Shown here: piece by piece, positions 3,577-63,374 of the stretch | How the letters are laid out: the number at the start of each line of letters is the position of its first letter | How positions within the stretch are numbered: the stretch's first letter is position 1 | Assembly (NCBI GenBank): GCA_964642475.1 | Contig: CAZXRC010000004.1 | Coordinates: 4,604-68,603, forward strand | Origin: an uncultured Gemmatimonadaceae bacterium | GTDB taxonomy: Bacteria; Gemmatimonadota; Gemmatimonadetes; Gemmatimonadales; GWC2-71-9 | Reading direction: 5' to 3' | Length of the DNA stretch: 64,000 nt | Program-made: the position numbers and the translations under genes | Notes under the pieces: generated by a model | Database searches by the model: none | Told to the model about the DNA's origin: nothing | The model's input: the letters and a program-made list of their open reading frames with translations, nothing else

Positions 3577-4449
3577 ATGCGTCCCATGCGAGTCGGCACT
3601 GGCAAGCGCGGGTCATCGTCCTTCGACGAGGGCTCGCTCGACCAGTACCTGCGTGAAATCAGCAAGTATCCGCTGATCACGCAGGACGAAGAAGTCGAAC
3701 TGGCCAAGCGCATTCGGGCGAAGGACCCGGAGGCGCTGGACAAGCTGGTGCGCAGCAACCTGCGATTCGTGGTGTCGGTCGCCAAGAAGTACCAGAACCA
3801 GGGTGTCTCGCTCTCCGACCTGATCAACGAGGGGAATCTCGGCCTCATCCGCGCGGCCCACAAATTCGACGAGACCAAGGGTATCAAGTTCATTTCGTAC
3901 GCGGTCTGGTGGATCCGCCAGGCGATTCTCCAGGCCCTGGCCGAGCAGAGCCGCATCGTCCGGGTGCCGCTCAATCGGGCGGGGACGCTGCACCGGATCG
4001 GCAAGCGCTCCTCGATGCTCCTCCAGGAGCTGGGCCGCGAACCCACGCCCGCCGAAATCGCCGAGGGGATGGACATCTCGATGGAGGAGGTCCAGAAGAC
4101 GCTCTCCATCAGCCAGAACCACCTCTCCCTCGATGCCCCCCTCACTCCGGGTGAGGACAACAAACTCCTCGACTACCTCCCCGATACCCAGAACGCCGGC
4201 CCCGACAGCGATACCTTCGAGAAGGCGCTGACCGAATCGATCGAAGAGGTCCTGTCCACCCTGAAGGAGCGGGAGGCCAAGATCCTGCGGCTCTACTTCG
4301 GCCTCGATGGTCCCGAGCCCATGACCCTCGAGGAGATCGGGAGCCAGCTCGGCATTACCCGGGAACGGGTCCGCCAGATCAAGGAGAAGGCCCTGACGCG
4401 TCTGCGGCACGTGAGTCGGGCCCGGGCGCTGGAGTCGTTCCTGACGTAG
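3577..4449 (+). CDS. RNA polymerase sigma-70 family factor, compact RpoD/SigA-like (no region 1.1)
   Basis: Regions 1.2-4.2 recognisable: YLREISKYPLIT, DLINEGNLGLIRAAHKFD, YAVWWIRQAI, LEEIGSQLGITRERVRQIKEKAL. Only 290 aa. Confidence 0.9.
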   Translation: MRPMRVGTGKRGSSSFDEGSLDQYLREISKYPLITQDEEVELAKRIRAKDPEALDKLVRSNLRFVVSVAKKYQNQGVSLSDLINEGNLGLIRAAHKFDETKGIKFISYAVWWIRQAILQALAEQSRIVRVPLNRAGTLHRIGKRSSMLLQELGREPTPAEIAEGMDISMEEVQKTLSISQNHLSLDAPLTPGEDNKLLDYLPDTQNAGPDSDTFEKALTESIEEVLSTLKEREAKILRLYFGLDGPEPMTLEEIGSQLGITRERVRQIKEKALTRLRHVSRARALESFLT

Positions 4450-4473
4450 GCCGACGGCCAACGGCCAGCGGCC
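4449..4473. repeat. heptamer tandem repeat (GGCCRNC x3.5) between convergent genes
   Basis: GGCCGAC GGCCAAC GGCCAGC GGCC starts at the last base of the sigma-factor stop codon. Same ACGGCCA/TTGGCCG unit as the arrays at 62695-62811. Confidence 0.7.
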
Positions 4474-8264: not shown

Positions 8265-8293
8265 AACCTATGGTCGCGGGCACAGCTAGTCAA
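8265..8293 (-). promoter_or_regulatory. sigma-70-like promoter TTGACT-N17-TAGGTT
   Basis: Minus strand reads cTTGACTagctgtgcccgcgaccaTAGGTTg, immediately downstream of the hairpin repeat at 8294-8342. Confidence 0.4.
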
Positions 8294-8342
8294 GAGTCGA
8301 GAGTCGAGGAGTCAGTGCCGGTTACCCCCGGGCTCTCGACTC
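8294..8342. repeat. heptamer repeats (GAGTCGA x2-3) forming a hairpin with a 10-bp inverted partner
   Basis: GAGTCGA GAGTCGA GGAGTCA at 8294-8314. GAGTCGAGAG (8294-8303) is the exact reverse complement of CTCTCGACTC (8333-8342). Sits directly after the stop of the 134-aa gene. Confidence 0.7.
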
Positions 8343-28260: not shown

Positions 28261-28397
28261 TTGACTGTTGGCAGTTGGCCGTAAGCCGCAAGCCGTAAGC
28301 CGTAAGCTGTAAGCTGTAAGCTGTAAGCTGTAGGGTATGTGGCTGTACCGCCTGTGGCTTATTGCCTATGGCGCACTGCCAAACAACCCAGGGCCCT
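28261..28397. repeat. 7-nt periodic tract; core of eight tandem heptamers GCYGYAA
   Basis: Core at 28278-28333: GCCGTAA GCCGCAA GCCGTAA GCCGTAA GCTGTAA GCTGTAA GCTGTAA GCTGTAG. Flanked by degenerate 7-nt units (TTGACTG TTGGCAG TTGGCCG ... TGGCTTA TTGCCTA TGGCGCA CTGCCAA). Lies between the smc stop and the DAHP synthase start. Confidence 0.85.
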
Positions 28398-46132: not shown

Positions 46133-46233
46133 GTCACCTTCCTTTGGTCTTGGCGCCCCGACCCTGGTGAGGGGTACGGGGAGGAGGAATGTTGGGGCGG
46201 GAAACGTAGCCGGGAGAAGGGGTTAGGGCAAGG

Positions 46234-46270
46234 GTCGGACAGTCGGAGGGCCGGACGGTCGGACGGGGGA
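46234..46270. repeat. octamer tandem repeat (GTCGGACR-like x4) upstream of rpsF
   Basis: GTCGGACA GTCGGAGG GCCGGACG GTCGGACG GGGGA. Confidence 0.7.
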
Positions 46271-46368
46271 CGGTGGGTACTCAAGGGCAGGGGCGACTTG
46301 CGTGCGCCCGCAGGTAGGGCATGTTGGGTCAGTGGATCCAGAGCCGCCTCCTCTCCAGGAGTCCCCCC

Positions 46369-53311: not shown

Positions 53312-55093
53312 CTACCAGTCCCGATTGGCGCTGCCACCCTTCTGCTGGCGGCGACCCTCATGGGTGTTGAGCTGCTGGCGCTCGACCTCCTCAAGCATGG
53401 CGCGTGCCTGCTGCTCGTCCAGCTCCTCGACCGATTCACCCTCATCTCCGCCCTGTCCCCCGCCCGCCATGGCGCCAACCGCGGTCTGTCGGTTGGCGTC
53501 GTACCCTTCTTCGCGGCTGTTCCCGCGGCCGTAGTCGGCCCGGCCGCCCTGACCCCGGGAGCCGCGTTCGTCGGTGTCGCCGCGGCGGCGGAGCGCCACC
53601 TCGAGATTCCACTTGGCATCGCGATCCGCCGGGTTGAGCCGGAGGGCCTCTTCATAGGCCTCCACGGCCCGGTCGAGATACCGACTGAGGGCGTTGGCAT
53701 CCTGCGCCGCCCGGACGTAGGCGTTGCCCATGTTGTAGAACGCGTCCTCCTTTTGGGCCGGAGCGGCGTTGAGCGCCTCCCGCCAGGTCTTGGCGGCCTC
53801 GGTGTACTGACGGAGCCGGTAGAGTGTGTTGCCGGTGTTGTAGCGCACCTCGGGGCCGCCCTCCTGCCGCAGCACCCTCTGGTACGCTTCGTAGGCCTCG
53901 AGGTACTTGCCGGACTCGTAGAGTTGCTGGCCCTTCACGAGATCGGCGCGGCCGCCGTCGTTGCAGCTCAGGCCGGCGAGGGTGGCAAGCAGCAGAATAG
54001 TCAGGTTCCGAGTTCCGAGTTGCGGGTTCCGCGTCAGTGGTGGCCGGCCGGCGAGGGCGGTCGCTGCCCACGCGCTACGGGTCACTCGGAACTCGGAACT
54101 CGGAACTCGGAACCAGAGCTCAACCAGCAGGCACACCACCGCAACGAGGAGCGGCCACTGGTACCGTTCGTTCGGTTCGGTGTTTTCCTGGCTGTGCAGG
54201 ATCCGGCTCTCCAGGTTGGAGATCGCGCGGGTCATCTCGTCGAGACCGCGGGGGTCGTTCCAGCGGGCGTAGGCCCCGTTGGAGACCCGGGCCAGCTGCT
54301 GGAGATCGGCCTCCGCCAGGCGCGAGATCACCGGCCGCCCGATGTTGTCGAGGTGCCAGGGGCCTTCCGCGGCCCCGGAGTCGTTGGGCACCTGGGCCCC
54401 CTCGAGCGCGCCGATGCCGATCGCGAAGATGGGGATGTGGGCCCGGCGATAGAGGTCGAAGATCGGGTCAAGGGCCCCTTCCGATCGCTCTCCGTCGGTC
54501 AGGAGAATCACGCCCCGTGACCCGATCAGGGTTCGCTCCTTGCGGAGCGCTCGCTCCGACACTCGGAGTGCCGAGGCCAGGTTGGTCGAGGGATCGGCGA
54601 TATCGTCGGGGGTGGCCGCCTCGAGGAAACGCTGCAGCGTTCCCAGGTCGCTGGTCGGCGGCAGCTGCAGGAACGCGGCTCCGGCGAAGATCACCATGCC
54701 GACCCGGTCGCCGGGGTGGGTCCCGGCCAGCTGCCACGCCAGCCGTTTGGCGAGGTCGAGCCGGGCCATCCCCACATCCGCCGCCTTCATCGAGCGCGAC
54801 AGGTCGAGCGCCACGATCAGGTCGCGGCCGGTCTTCGGCAGCTCGGCCGGGTGCCGTCCGACCTGGGGGCGGGCCAGGGCGATCACTGCGGCGGCGAGCC
54901 CGGTCCAGCGAAGCAGTCCCCGGCGGCGATCGGGGGTGAGCGGCGGCAGGATCGAGCTCTTGGCCAGGATGGTCCGGTCGCCGAAGCGCGCCAGCGCATC
55001 GTCGTGATCCCGCCGGGCCTGGCGAATGATCATCCAGAGCGCCGGCAGGACTGCCAGGAGGATCAGTGCGGTCGGAGTGACAAAGAGGCTCAT
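53312..55093 (-). CDS. vWA-domain protein (BatB-like) continuous in-frame with a TPR protein (BatC-like)
   Basis: MIDAS LIVALDLSRSM; TM WPLLVAVVCLLVELW; then a 35-aa linker encoded by the hairpin repeat; then a lipoprotein-like LTILLLATLAGLSC, TPR repeats and a Gly/Arg/Glu-rich tail. No in-frame stop between the two parts. Confidence 0.7.
   Translation of the reverse strand: MSLFVTPTALILLAVLPALWMIIRQARRDHDDALARFGDRTILAKSSILPPLTPDRRRGLLRWTGLAAAVIALARPQVGRHPAELPKTGRDLIVALDLSRSMKAADVGMARLDLAKRLAWQLAGTHPGDRVGMVIFAGAAFLQLPPTSDLGTLQRFLEAATPDDIADPSTNLASALRVSERALRKERTLIGSRGVILLTDGERSEGALDPIFDLYRRAHIPIFAIGIGALEGAQVPNDSGAAEGPWHLDNIGRPVISRLAEADLQQLARVSNGAYARWNDPRGLDEMTRAISNLESRILHSQENTEPNERYQWPLLVAVVCLLVELWFRVPSSEFRVTRSAWAATALAGRPPLTRNPQLGTRNLTILLLATLAGLSCNDGGRADLVKGQQLYESGKYLEAYEAYQRVLRQEGGPEVRYNTGNTLYRLRQYTEAAKTWREALNAAPAQKEDAFYNMGNAYVRAAQDANALSRYLDRAVEAYEEALRLNPADRDAKWNLEVALRRRGDTDERGSRGQGGRADYGRGNSREEGYDANRQTAVGAMAGGGQGGDEGESVEELDEQQARAMLEEVERQQLNTHEGRRQQKGGSANRDW
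54004..54114. repeat. inverted arrays of heptamers (GTTCCGA)n ... (TCGGAAC)n inside the BatB/BatC ORF
   Basis: Left arm 54005-54032: GTTCCGA GTTCCGA GTTGCGG GTTCCGC. A 53-nt spacer follows. Right arm 54086-54113: four perfect TCGGAAC units. Confidence 0.85.
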
Positions 55094-61589: not shown

Positions 61590-62687
61590 TCAGGTGTTGA
61601 AGCGGAACAGCATCACGTCGCCGTCCTTCACGACGTATTCCTTGCCCTCGGCCCGGGAGAGGCCCTGGTCCCGCGCCGGCTTCCAGCCGCCGACCCGCAC
61701 GAAGTCGGCATAGGCCACGGTTTCGGCCTTGATGAACCCCTTCTCGAAATCGGAGTGGATCACCCCGGCGGCCTGGGGGGCGCGGTCGCCGCGGTGGATG
61801 GTCCAGGCCCGCACTTCTTTCTCGCCGGCGGTGAAGTAGCTCTGGAGGCCGAGCAGGTGATAGGCTGCGTGCGCCAGCCGGTCGAGTCCCGACTCGGTAG
61901 CGCCGAGGGAGGCGAGAAATTCGGCCCGGTCTTCGACCGGCAGCTCGGCCAGCTCGGCCTCCACTTTGCCGGAGAAGATCACGATCTCCGCCTCCTCGCC
62001 GTCCCGCGCCACCGCCGCGCGCAGCGCCTCGACGTGGCGATTGCCGGTGGAGAGCTCGCCTTCGAGCACGTTGGCGGCGTACAGCACCGGCTTCGACGTC
62101 AGCAGGTTGAAGGCGCGGTAGGTGGGCGTCTCTTCCTCGGCGGGCCGCACGGTGCGGGCCGCTTTGCCATCCGCCAAGGCCTCCTTGAGCCGGGTGAGGA
62201 GCCGGGTCTCCAGCTTGGCCTGGGCGTCGCCCGACTTGGCGGCGCGCGCTGACTTGTCGAGGCGCTTCTCGACCGAGGCGAGATCAGCCAGCTGGAGCTC
62301 GATGTTGATCACCTCGCGGTCCCGGGCCGGGTCCACCGAGGTCATCACGTGCTGCACGTCCTCATCCTCGAAGCAGCGCACCACATGGACGATCGCATCG
62401 ACCTCGCGGATGTTGGCGAGGAACTGGTTGCCCAGGCCTTCGCCTTTGCTCGCTCCCTTTACCAGGCCGGCGATGTCGACGAATTCCACCGCCGCCGGTA
62501 CGGTCCGCTCCGGGTTCACGATCCGGGCCAGCTCGGCGAGTCGCGGATCGGGCACGGTCACGACGCCGGTGTTGGGCTCGATGGTCGCGAACGGATAGTT
62601 GGCCACCAGCGCCCCCGCCGAGGTGAGGGCGTTGAAAAGCGTGGACTTGCCGACGTTGGGGAGACCGACGATGCCTAGGCGAAGCAT
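61590..62687 (-). CDS. ychF: redox-regulated ribosome-binding ATPase YchF
   Basis: LGIVGLPNVGKSTLFNALT; C-terminal TGS-like ...GKEYVVKDGDVMLFRFN. Confidence 0.95.
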   Translation of the reverse strand: MLRLGIVGLPNVGKSTLFNALTSAGALVANYPFATIEPNTGVVTVPDPRLAELARIVNPERTVPAAVEFVDIAGLVKGASKGEGLGNQFLANIREVDAIVHVVRCFEDEDVQHVMTSVDPARDREVINIELQLADLASVEKRLDKSARAAKSGDAQAKLETRLLTRLKEALADGKAARTVRPAEEETPTYRAFNLLTSKPVLYAANVLEGELSTGNRHVEALRAAVARDGEEAEIVIFSGKVEAELAELPVEDRAEFLASLGATESGLDRLAHAAYHLLGLQSYFTAGEKEVRAWTIHRGDRAPQAAGVIHSDFEKGFIKAETVAYADFVRVGGWKPARDQGLSRAEGKEYVVKDGDVMLFRFNT

Positions 62688-62694
62688 GGGGCCT

Positions 62695-62811
62695 TTGGCC
62701 GTTGGCCGTTGGCCATTGGCCGCTGTAGCTGGTTGGGCGCGTGCGAGCGCGTTATCTGGGAAACCATGTATGACATCGTACTACCAACGGCCAACGGCCA
62801 ATGGCTAACGG
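62695..62811. repeat. inverted arrays of heptamers (TTGGCCG)4 ... (CCAACGG)4 between pth and ychF
   Basis: Left arm 62695-62722: TTGGCCG TTGGCCG TTGGCCA TTGGCCG. A 61-nt spacer follows. Right arm 62784-62811: CCAACGG CCAACGG CCAATGG CTAACGG. The pth stop codon lies inside the right arm. Confidence 0.85.
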
Positions 62812-63374
62812 CTATTGAACCGGTTCATTGCCACTTCGATCCCGTCGCTGAGCCAGCATTCGATGGCCTGGCACATCGGGTCGAGCAGGTCCTCCACCAC
62901 CGCCCGCTCCTCGGGGGGGAACGGTTCCAGCACGAAGTCGGCGGTGTCGCGGGTGCCCGCCGGCAGCGGGCCGATCCCGATCCGGAGCCGGGCGTAATCC
63001 TGCCGCCGGAGCGCTCCCTCGATGCTCTTGAGACCGTTGTGCCCCCCGGCCGACCCCGCGCCCCGGAGGCGGAACTTGCCGAGCGGCAAGGCGAAGTCGT
63101 CGGTGACGACGAGCAGGTCCTGCGCCGGGTCGAACCCCGGAAGCGAACGGAGCGAGGCCAGCGCGGCCCCGCTCCGGTTCATGTAGGTCTGCGGCTTGAT
63201 CAGGGTCACGGGGCGACCCAGGGCGCTGCCCTGCGCCTCGCGGGCGGCCGGCACCCGCCGAAAGGGCGGGAGCTTCCAGCGCGCGGCCAGGCGGTCGACC
63301 AAGAGAAACCCGGCATTGTGCCGGGTATTCTCGTACTCCGAGCCTGGGTTGCCGAGACCGACGATGGCTCGCAG
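62805..63374 (-). CDS. pth: peptidyl-tRNA hydrolase (apparent CTG start)
   Basis: The conserved N-terminus AIVGLGNPGSEYENTRHNAGF lies upstream of the first ATG/GTG. The only in-frame candidates after the upstream TAA are CTG 63374 (AAGGAG 6 nt upstream) and ATC. Confidence 0.85.
   Translation of the reverse strand: MRAIVGLGNPGSEYENTRHNAGFLLVDRLAARWKLPPFRRVPAAREAQGSALGRPVTLIKPQTYMNRSGAALASLRSLPGFDPAQDLLVVTDDFALPLGKFRLRGAGSAGGHNGLKSIEGALRRQDYARLRIGIGPLPAGTRDTADFVLEPFPPEERAVVEDLLDPMCQAIECWLSDGIEVAMNRFNSR

Follow-up and report, generated by a model that had tools for sequence, protein, structure and literature searches.

The pth–ychF junction

Within the window, i.e., the whole 64,000-nt stretch of uncultured Gemmatimonadaceae DNA analysed here, the minus strand carries L25, pth, a repeat element and ychF in that order (ORF list), and the two arms and the spacer of this element occupy the entire gap between pth and ychF (Table 1). 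An initial annotation had proposed inverted heptamer arrays around a 61-nt spacer at this place, and both arrays were recovered with TRF. The arms are complementary at 86% over 29 nt or at 95% over 22 nt, with several shifted registers (inverted-repeat scan), in agreement with the earlier prediction of pairing over at least 16 bp in slipped registers. Read in the mRNA sense (minus strand), the right arm is the 5′ arm and gives pth its last two codons and its TAG stop codon (62805-62807), which lies in the first units of that arm, as had been annotated. The left arm is then the 3′ arm, and 2 nt separate its TRF edge from the ychF ATG (62685-62687); the distance of about 8 nt given earlier is close to the 7 nt counted from 62695, but does not apply to the arm as delimited by TRF.

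Table 1. Coordinates of the pth–ychF element, its neighbours and related repeats. Positions are those of the window unless a contig of this genome (G000) or of the relative G023 is named.
Feature	Position	Strand	Description	Source or remark
Left arm	62690-62722	+	4.7 tandem GGCCGTT-type heptamers, period 7	TRF, inverted-repeat scan, sequence
Right arm	62784-62812	+	4.1 tandem CCAACGG-type heptamers (reverse complement), period 7	TRF, inverted-repeat scan
Spacer (loop)	62723-62783		61 nt	Unique in genome by all-against-all spacer BLAST
pth, peptidyl-tRNA hydrolase	62805-63302	minus	Gene upstream of element	ORF list, orthologues
ychF, GTPase/ATPase	61590-62687	minus	Gene downstream of element	ORF list, relatives
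Clean pair	54005-54113		GTTCCGA arms, 53-nt spacer	Orthologous G023 element has GTTCCGC/GTTCCTC arms
Pair with decayed right arm	28261-28397		Long left array GCCGTAA/GCTGTAA (7.9 units)	G023 orthologue is a spacer-less AGCTGTT hairpin
Small member	8288-8342		AGTCGAG array and short inverted right arm	TRF
Lone array	4449-4473		GGCCAAC array, convergent junction, same unit family as pth–ychF element	TRF
Lone octamer array	46233-46274		GGTCGGAC type	No array at matching G023 place
PF05635 cassette	G000 C30:36376-36913		GGCCGTT arms; PF05635 gene at C30:36517-36834	
PF05635 cassette	G000 C57		GAGTTCC arms; PF05635 gene at C57:4544-4858	
PF05635 cassette	G000 C2		G-rich octamer arms	
PF05635 cassette	G000 C43		G-rich octamer arms	
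CGCAGAGG-family element	G000 C11:57866-58051		Longer, A-rich spacer	
CGCAGAGG-family element	G000 C33:28539-28782		Longer, A-rich spacer	
CGCAGAGG-family element	G000 C36:14134-14218		Longer, A-rich spacer	
ACCCTCC...GGAGGGT hairpin	G000 C3:34758-34784		Terminator-like hairpin	
ACCCTCC...GGAGGGT hairpin	G000 C22:48413-48439		Terminator-like hairpin	
ACCCTCC...GGAGGGT hairpin	G000 C36:8862-8889		Terminator-like hairpin	
GTCATCCCGAGCG palindrome	G023:C1:189219-189341		Long palindromic repeat	
GTCATCCCGAGCG palindrome	G023:C12:279295-279412		Long palindromic repeat	

The minus-strand RNA of the element is predicted to fold at -64.2 kcal/mol, against -45.0 ± 3.8 kcal/mol in shuffled sequences (z = -5). 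The element gave no match to Rfam, and a scan for stems with a T-run found no such site there: an intrinsic terminator has a G+C-rich stem followed directly by a T-run, while the sense-strand stem here runs into the ychF start codon. A terminator-like stem with a T-rich tail does occur at window positions 63308-63326 (minus), between L25 and pth and just 5′ of the pth start. Consequences of the element for pth and ychF would probably be modest, i.e., a rewritten C-terminus and stop for pth and a stem over the 30 nt preceding the ychF start.

The same design or periodicity had been reported at five further sites of the window. This holds fully for one, the clean pair at 54005-54113, and in part for the others, which are partial pairs or lone arrays (Table 1). 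An ORF of 594 aa (window 53312-55093, minus) runs uninterrupted through the GTTCCGA hairpin of that clean pair; as the element measures 109 nt, which is not a multiple of three, a true fusion is less likely than two genes linked by a repeat that has no stop codon. The relative G023 carries an orthologous element at the matching place.

We compared the pth–ychF junction in 30 genomes of the genus; a metagenome scan and the genomes of the species yielded no strain nearer than about 83% DNA identity. Elements at this junction in G023 and G048 can be regarded as orthologous to the one described here, based on a common pth ending and a TAG inside the first unit. Their arms consist of AGCTGTT units in G023 and GCCGTCA units in G048, i.e., both arms have changed together, and their spacers cannot be aligned with the spacer here. 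Related arrays also occupy this junction in independently assembled genomes of relatives, which rules out the assembly artefact against which the annotation had asked for a check. Arrays of unrelated units were found here in other genomes (GAGCTAA; GCTATCA without a loop; GGGGAAC), and G020 retains decayed array remnants. In the GGGGAAC case, G016 (L104), the pth frame continues through the array, which yields a C-terminal tail of about 15 residues and places the stop codon in the spacer. Some relatives have a plain G+C hairpin of about 70 nt between the two genes, and in others the gap is just 10-30 nt (14 nt in a more distant relative).

A stretch of 21 nt in the spacer is weakly similar (17/21) to ychF-proximal intergenic DNA of the relative G046, at p about 0.005 before correction for multiple tests (local alignment against shuffles). 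We rejected the idea that spacers are ancestral intergenic DNA: at pth–ychF its support is this weak likeness, and elsewhere it is contradicted by an element whose counterpart site is a stop codon that overlaps a start codon.

A genome-wide population of inverted arrays

The genome (G000; 4.17 Mb in 79 contigs, 69% G+C, 98.7% complete) contains 249 period-7 arrays and 119 period-8 arrays of at least 3.5 copies, compared with 15-21 and 7-15, respectively, in order-3 Markov genomes of equal size. The check for period-7 enrichment beyond chance suggested in the initial annotation was thereby passed, and the abundant family of periodic hairpins that it had postulated does exist, in a form that resembles STRR and other heptamer repeats. 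Overall, 110 inverted pairs were found, at gene junctions, and the pth–ychF element is a typical member of this population. GTTCCNN units form the left arm in 52 of the 110 pairs (GAGTTCC in 41), GGCCGTT and close variants in about 25, and G-rich octamers in about 20, with CGCAGAGG, GCCGTAA and AGTCGAG as minor unit groups.

These pairs share a common geometry: arms fall in a narrow range of 24-35 nt (about 4.3-4.7 units), spacer lengths peak at 40-60 nt, and the median total is 114 nt. Polarity is strict, as every unit occurs in one only of the two possible arrangements, and on either strand G exceeds C in the 5′ arm of 87 elements versus 18, and of 23 unit families versus 4. With gene positions taken from a rough purpose-made GC3-based caller (3,749 genes), the median distance from element edge to the stop codon of the gene ending there is 2 nt, and that to the start of the gene beginning there is 13 nt. 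Orientations of flanking genes equal the genome background (40 + 34 tandem, 19 divergent and 17 convergent). The 24 elements lying inside called ORFs, many of them at ORF ends and mostly of lengths that are not multiples of three, are read-through artefacts, since the main units have no stop codon in any frame.

Spacers are unrelated among elements (no homology in all-against-all BLAST). Arrays fade out at their edges and lack sharp termini, and target duplications were seen neither there nor in pairs of filled and empty sites. Three accounts or leads did not survive closer inspection. An origin of gene-less elements from gene-carrying cassettes by deletion was rejected because no homology appeared between their spacers and the interior of any cassette. 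Three loci hinted that arrays grow on their loop side and keep older units outside, but no outer-to-inner gradient of unit types appeared in 45 and 79 arms. A Pfam look at ORFs in longer loops was dropped, the long-range pairs being neighbouring elements that flank ordinary genes.

The genome also carries a second small repeat, a terminator-like hairpin with the stem ACCCTCC...GGAGGGT (Table 1). Half of its 16 copies sit at convergent junctions; nine adjoin GGCCGTT-type arrays, five lie between two arms, and the hairpin is conserved in G023.

Shared junctions carry species-specific units

We next turn to G023 (about 83% DNA identity), the sole relative sampled in depth, for which 449 kb were examined in regions picked for their repeats. 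Unit families differ strongly between the two genomes. Counting three tandem units with at most one mismatch on both strands, GAGTTCC occurs 113 times in this genome and 52 times in G023, and GGCCGTT 44 times and 2 times; conversely, AGCTGTT is absent here and found 138 times in G023, and GTTCCTC occurs once here and 271 times in G023. The same shift is seen within a superfamily: TC makes up 87% of the last two positions of GTTCCNN units in G023, versus 3% here, where GA accounts for 63%.

The junctions themselves are largely shared. Through flanking genes, 48 paired elements of G023 were placed and 37 unique ones mapped to this genome; four identical elements with their flanks on G023 contigs C15 and C12 (about 382-400 kb), apparently an assembly duplication, were counted once. 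A partner at the same junction was found for 27 of the 37, or for about 70% of gene-less elements, and these partners were without exception (27/27) of the same superfamily and made of this genome's unit. Accordingly, all 13 occupied GTTCCTC sites of G023 face GTTCCGA or a near variant here, and all 7 occupied AGCTGTT-type sites face GGCCGTT-type arrays. The other 10 mapped sites are empty here, and mapping in the reverse direction, from this genome to G023, was in agreement. Gain or loss of whole elements also occurs: at the place of one G023 element, a stop and a start codon overlap in this genome.

Spacers at orthologous sites resemble each other more than spacers at non-orthologous sites do (Mann-Whitney p = 0.003). 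At C22:48362-48478, a terminator-like spacer hairpin is identical to its G023 counterpart at 41 of 44 positions, while every arm unit differs (GGCCGTT vs AGCTGTT), which indicates that at some loci the arms were rewritten and the spacer was inherited. Taken together, the same junctions, the species-specific units and the conservation of some spacers show that arms evolve in concert across the genome. We found no paper on species-specific arm rewriting at orthologous loci.

Unit families are patchy within the genus: GAGTTCC arrays occur in 7 of 25 genomes, and (GTTCAGC)3 is absent in 28 of 39. A long palindromic repeat beginning with GTCATCCCGAGCG fills G023 junctions where this genome has heptamer hairpins (Table 1), which suggests that gene junctions attract several kinds of hairpin repeat.

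Hairpins that carry PF05635 and PF13366 genes

PF05635 is the 23S-IVS/Avd-like family of four-helix bundles, first seen in intervening sequences of 23S rRNA and related to Avd, the accessory protein of diversity-generating retroelements. Despite its large size and a solved structure, we know of no role and no enzyme in this family. All 4 PF05635 genes of the genome lie between inverted arrays (Table 1), and the same is true of both PF13366 genes, whose arrays are CGCAGAGG-type and CACAGA-type. The arm units of the PF05635 cassettes match the main gene-less unit families of the same genome. The minor GCCGTAA family has no cassette here. Across the genus, both arms were detected at 28 of 30 sampled PF05635 loci and one arm at the remaining 2, with very diverse units, and arrays flanked both sides in 9 of ten further cassettes. 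PF05635 cassettes occupy the same loci in related species (C57 in five genomes, C30 in three, C43 and C2 in two or three each). Three cassettes of G023 have arms of GTTCCTC, GCCGTAA/GCCGTTA and GCGGCAAG. Arms around PF05635 genes are often much longer (9-17 units) than gene-less arms (about 4-5 units), e.g., at L142, L143 and G000 C43:14685-14797.

In a tree of PF05635 proteins, octamer-armed genes form one clade apart from heptamer-armed genes with 100/100 support, and the latter also cluster by unit type. Such a match alone is no proof of co-evolution, as kin share labels and co-inheritance could produce it. Within the genus, (GTTCAGC)3 reaches its highest counts in G051 and G047, exactly the two genomes with a cassette of that unit. 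G003 and G017, on the other hand, have 160-186 GAGTTCC matches and no detected PF05635 cassette with this unit, implying that a family can persist without its cassette or that the cassette was missed. The nearest solved structure to the cassette PF05635 proteins is XCC0516 of Xanthomonas campestris (PDB 2GSC), a homopentamer of four-helix bundles (PMC4990558).

The unit of the CGCAGAGG-family elements is also that of the arms around a PF13366 nuclease-like gene. None of the three mapped elements of this family has a same-family counterpart in G023, where two of the sites lack any element and the third has an unrelated array; the family therefore looks recently active, unlike the families linked to PF05635.

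Two further mechanisms were rejected. Mobility driven by a RAYT would involve a Y1 transposase, and its domain PF01797 was not found in this 98.7% complete genome. A reverse transcriptase that adds units in a telomerase-like way, with PF05635 as its cofactor, was likewise set aside, as no RVT_1 domain was found in the genome.

Probable maintenance at the DNA level

The initial annotation had also suggested a terminator or RNA-stability function for these hairpins, which our data do not support; its other proposals, slippage, recombination and protein binding, may hold. For the 74 elements between co-directional genes, the stem has a median of 27 bp and is about 90% Watson-Crick, and its sense-strand mismatches comprise 55 G-U and 61 A-C. 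This equal frequency argues against a selected RNA stem, which should favour G-U. Fold z-scores of spacers equal those of ordinary intergenic DNA, and spacers as structured RNAs were rejected on this ground. Searches for the RNase III domains PF14622 and PF00636 gave matches in control genomes and none in this genome, and processing of the hairpins by RNase III was set aside as unlikely, no such enzyme having been detected. Among near-complete Gemmatimonadales genomes PF14622 was found in only 1 of 61; if this absence is real, the whole order may be without the canonical double-strand RNase. Symmetric mismatches, ordinary spacer folding, the missing RNase III and the lack of orientation bias together point to maintenance on DNA. 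With neither a T-run nor an Rfam match, the pth–ychF element resembles neither a terminator nor an RNA structure under selection.

Comparison with known repeat systems

Close in build are the convergent SSR pairs of the heptamer GGGAATC in Xanthomonas campestris and X. axonopodis (Rehm et al. 2015, PMC4692102). These number 70-75 pairs with one array per strand around a short spacer, and they share with the elements here tandem heptamers of about 4 or more units, a mostly intergenic location near gene ends and a G-rich unit in the 5′ arm of either strand. Intergenic heptamer arrays of at least three units and close opposite-strand pairs, both typical of that class, are present here; its G-quadruplex potential is not, as neither GGCCGTT nor GAGTTCC contains three consecutive G. 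Xanthomonas has a single unit with quadruplex-capable G-runs, whereas many families occur here, most without G-runs, in addition to octamers. In the searched text, neither a tie to a gene family nor a concerted change between species is mentioned.

REPIN/RAYT systems (Bertels and Rainey 2011, PMC3116915; bioRxiv 10.1101/2021.07.10.451892) likewise form populations of intergenic inverted doublets, i.e., hairpins around a spacer tens of bases long. Their gene is vertically inherited, present in single copy and set between repeats of its own type, as in the PF05635 cassettes, and several long-persisting gene/repeat families can coexist per genome, also as here. Unlike in REPIN/RAYT systems, the partner gene encodes a PF05635 four-helix bundle or PF13366 and not a Y1 HUH transposase (PF01797 not found), arms are tandem microsatellite arrays instead of a fixed palindrome, and elements mostly keep orthologous sites while their arm sequence is rewritten.

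In the ORF-bearing 23S rRNA intervening sequences of Coxiella burnetii and Leptospira (Warrier et al. 2016, PMC4990558), the stem, about 28 bp long, has tandem heptamers, variable in number between strains, and the loop gene belongs to the same family (S23p/PF05635) as the cassettes here. The pth–ychF element differs from these in being gene-less and located between protein-coding genes, not in helix 25 or 45, and those sequences are excised by RNase III, an enzyme not found here.

The elements resemble MITEs in being short, gene-less and intergenic with inverted ends, and some junctions that are occupied in one species lack an element in another. They fall outside that class in that copies have no common internal sequence, sharp termini, target duplication or transposase, and most are positionally conserved between species. 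The STRR class, in turn, consists of named unit sequences in heterocystous cyanobacteria; the units here differ and the host is a member of the Gemmatimonadales, which places the elements outside it. The STRR repeats of cyanobacteria and TAACTGA repeats are similar to the arrays here as abundant intergenic tandem heptamers near start codons (MacGregor 2015, PMC4679880), but have other unit sequences and other host phyla, and are mainly direct: a Beggiatoaceae genome holds 169 direct sets and one indirect (PMC4679880).

Interpretation

We consider it probable that the pth–ychF element is a gene-less member of a DNA-maintained, cassette-linked population of hairpins with concerted units. Each element is made of two inverted arrays of about 4-5 units of 7 or 8 bases, with arms of about 30 nt that enclose some 55 nt of non-conserved spacer, in the gap from a stop codon to the following start, and each main unit family has as its counterpart a single-copy, vertically inherited PF05635 gene in the loop of a hairpin of like unit. 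For GGCCGTT, the unit of the pth–ychF element, this is the C30 cassette, and element and cassette arms have changed together since the divergence from the nearest relative. Units may spread within an array by slippage, and the two arms would be held complementary in a strand-symmetric manner. Homogenisation of the unit across dispersed loci and the cassette, with inheritance of the spacer, would leave orthologues bearing their own species' unit. The homogenising agent could be either ectopic conversion between arrays or a cassette protein that recognises its own unit in a REPIN/RAYT-like manner. By analogy with RAYT and REPINs (PMC3116915), we favour a cassette protein that may recognise its unit; conversion without a dedicated factor is a serious rival. 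Counting against our reading are the lack of any known enzyme in PF05635, the GAGTTCC arrays of G003 and G017 with no detected cassette of that unit, the GCCGTAA family with no cassette here, and the fading array edges with no target duplication; nor was movement of elements directly observed. A more specific version, in which the PF05635 paralogues are sequence-specific trans-acting partners that each recognise their own unit and drive or direct genome-wide rewriting of arrays, is possible and put forward tentatively.

If the arrays were a mutational by-product of slippage microsatellites, quasi-palindrome template switching and occasional ectopic conversion, with the PF05635 and PF13366 genes as mere cargo, one would expect the fading edges without sharp termini, the strand-symmetric mismatches and the lack of a detected transposase or reverse transcriptase, and the large GAGTTCC family of G003 and G017 would pose no difficulty. 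Such a process nevertheless leaves unexplained the strict polarity (87 vs 18 elements, 23 vs 4 families), the narrow arm length of about 4.3-4.7 units, the arrays at 30/30 sampled PF05635 genes, and a protein clade that predicts repeat period; we judge it unlikely, if still deserving of weight.

A selected RNA element in the pth–ychF transcript, acting as terminator, stabiliser, RNase III processing site or occluder of the ychF ribosome-binding site, would account for the strong predicted fold and for a stem ending 2-5 nt from the ychF start codon, and has a precedent in the PF05635-bearing intervening sequence of Coxiella, whose 28-bp heptamer stem is cut by RNase III (PMC4990558). It is at odds with the balance of G-U and A-C mismatches, the missing T-run, Rfam match and RNase III domains, the rarity of PF14622 in the order, the indifference of the family to gene orientation (19/110 between divergent genes) and the short, plain pth–ychF gap of several relatives, and we regard it as highly improbable. 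The least probable reading in our view is that of host-serving double-stranded sites for a multimeric protein, e.g., in nucleoid organisation or boundary marking, in which inversion would reflect symmetric binding and not a hairpin. A uniform unit across many loci of one genome, the narrow arm length, the location at gene boundaries and the pentameric rings formed by PF05635 relatives (PDB 2GSC; PMC4990558) would suit such sites, but close relatives have no element at many junctions (10/37 mapped sites are empty here, and the pth–ychF site is empty in several genomes), unit families such as GAGTTCC are patchy across the genus, and neighbouring genes are tied by no common function.

Implications

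Many bacterial genomes have, to our knowledge, an excess of heptamer repeats whose origin and function are not understood. The present analysis demonstrates a DNA-level repeat population at gene junctions, its tie to vertically inherited cassettes, and the concerted evolution of arm units. Some of the components are already in print, namely inverted heptamer pairs in Xanthomonas (PMC4692102) and tandem heptamers in a PF05635-bearing stem in Coxiella (PMC4990558). The main new result is the location of every PF05635 and PF13366 gene of this genome inside such a hairpin, and no earlier description was found of the species-specific rewriting of arms at orthologous loci. For genome annotation, these hairpins provide stop codons and C-terminal residues, as for pth here, and can be read through in all frames, which yields spurious fused ORFs. 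More broadly, concerted evolution of the kind seen in REPIN populations extends to dispersed arrays of 30 nt, and the match between a species' hairpin units and the arms around its own PF05635 gene makes for a testable pairing of protein and repeat. If true, the PF05635 partnership would represent a second gene-and-repeat system of the REPIN/RAYT kind, one that works without a transposase.
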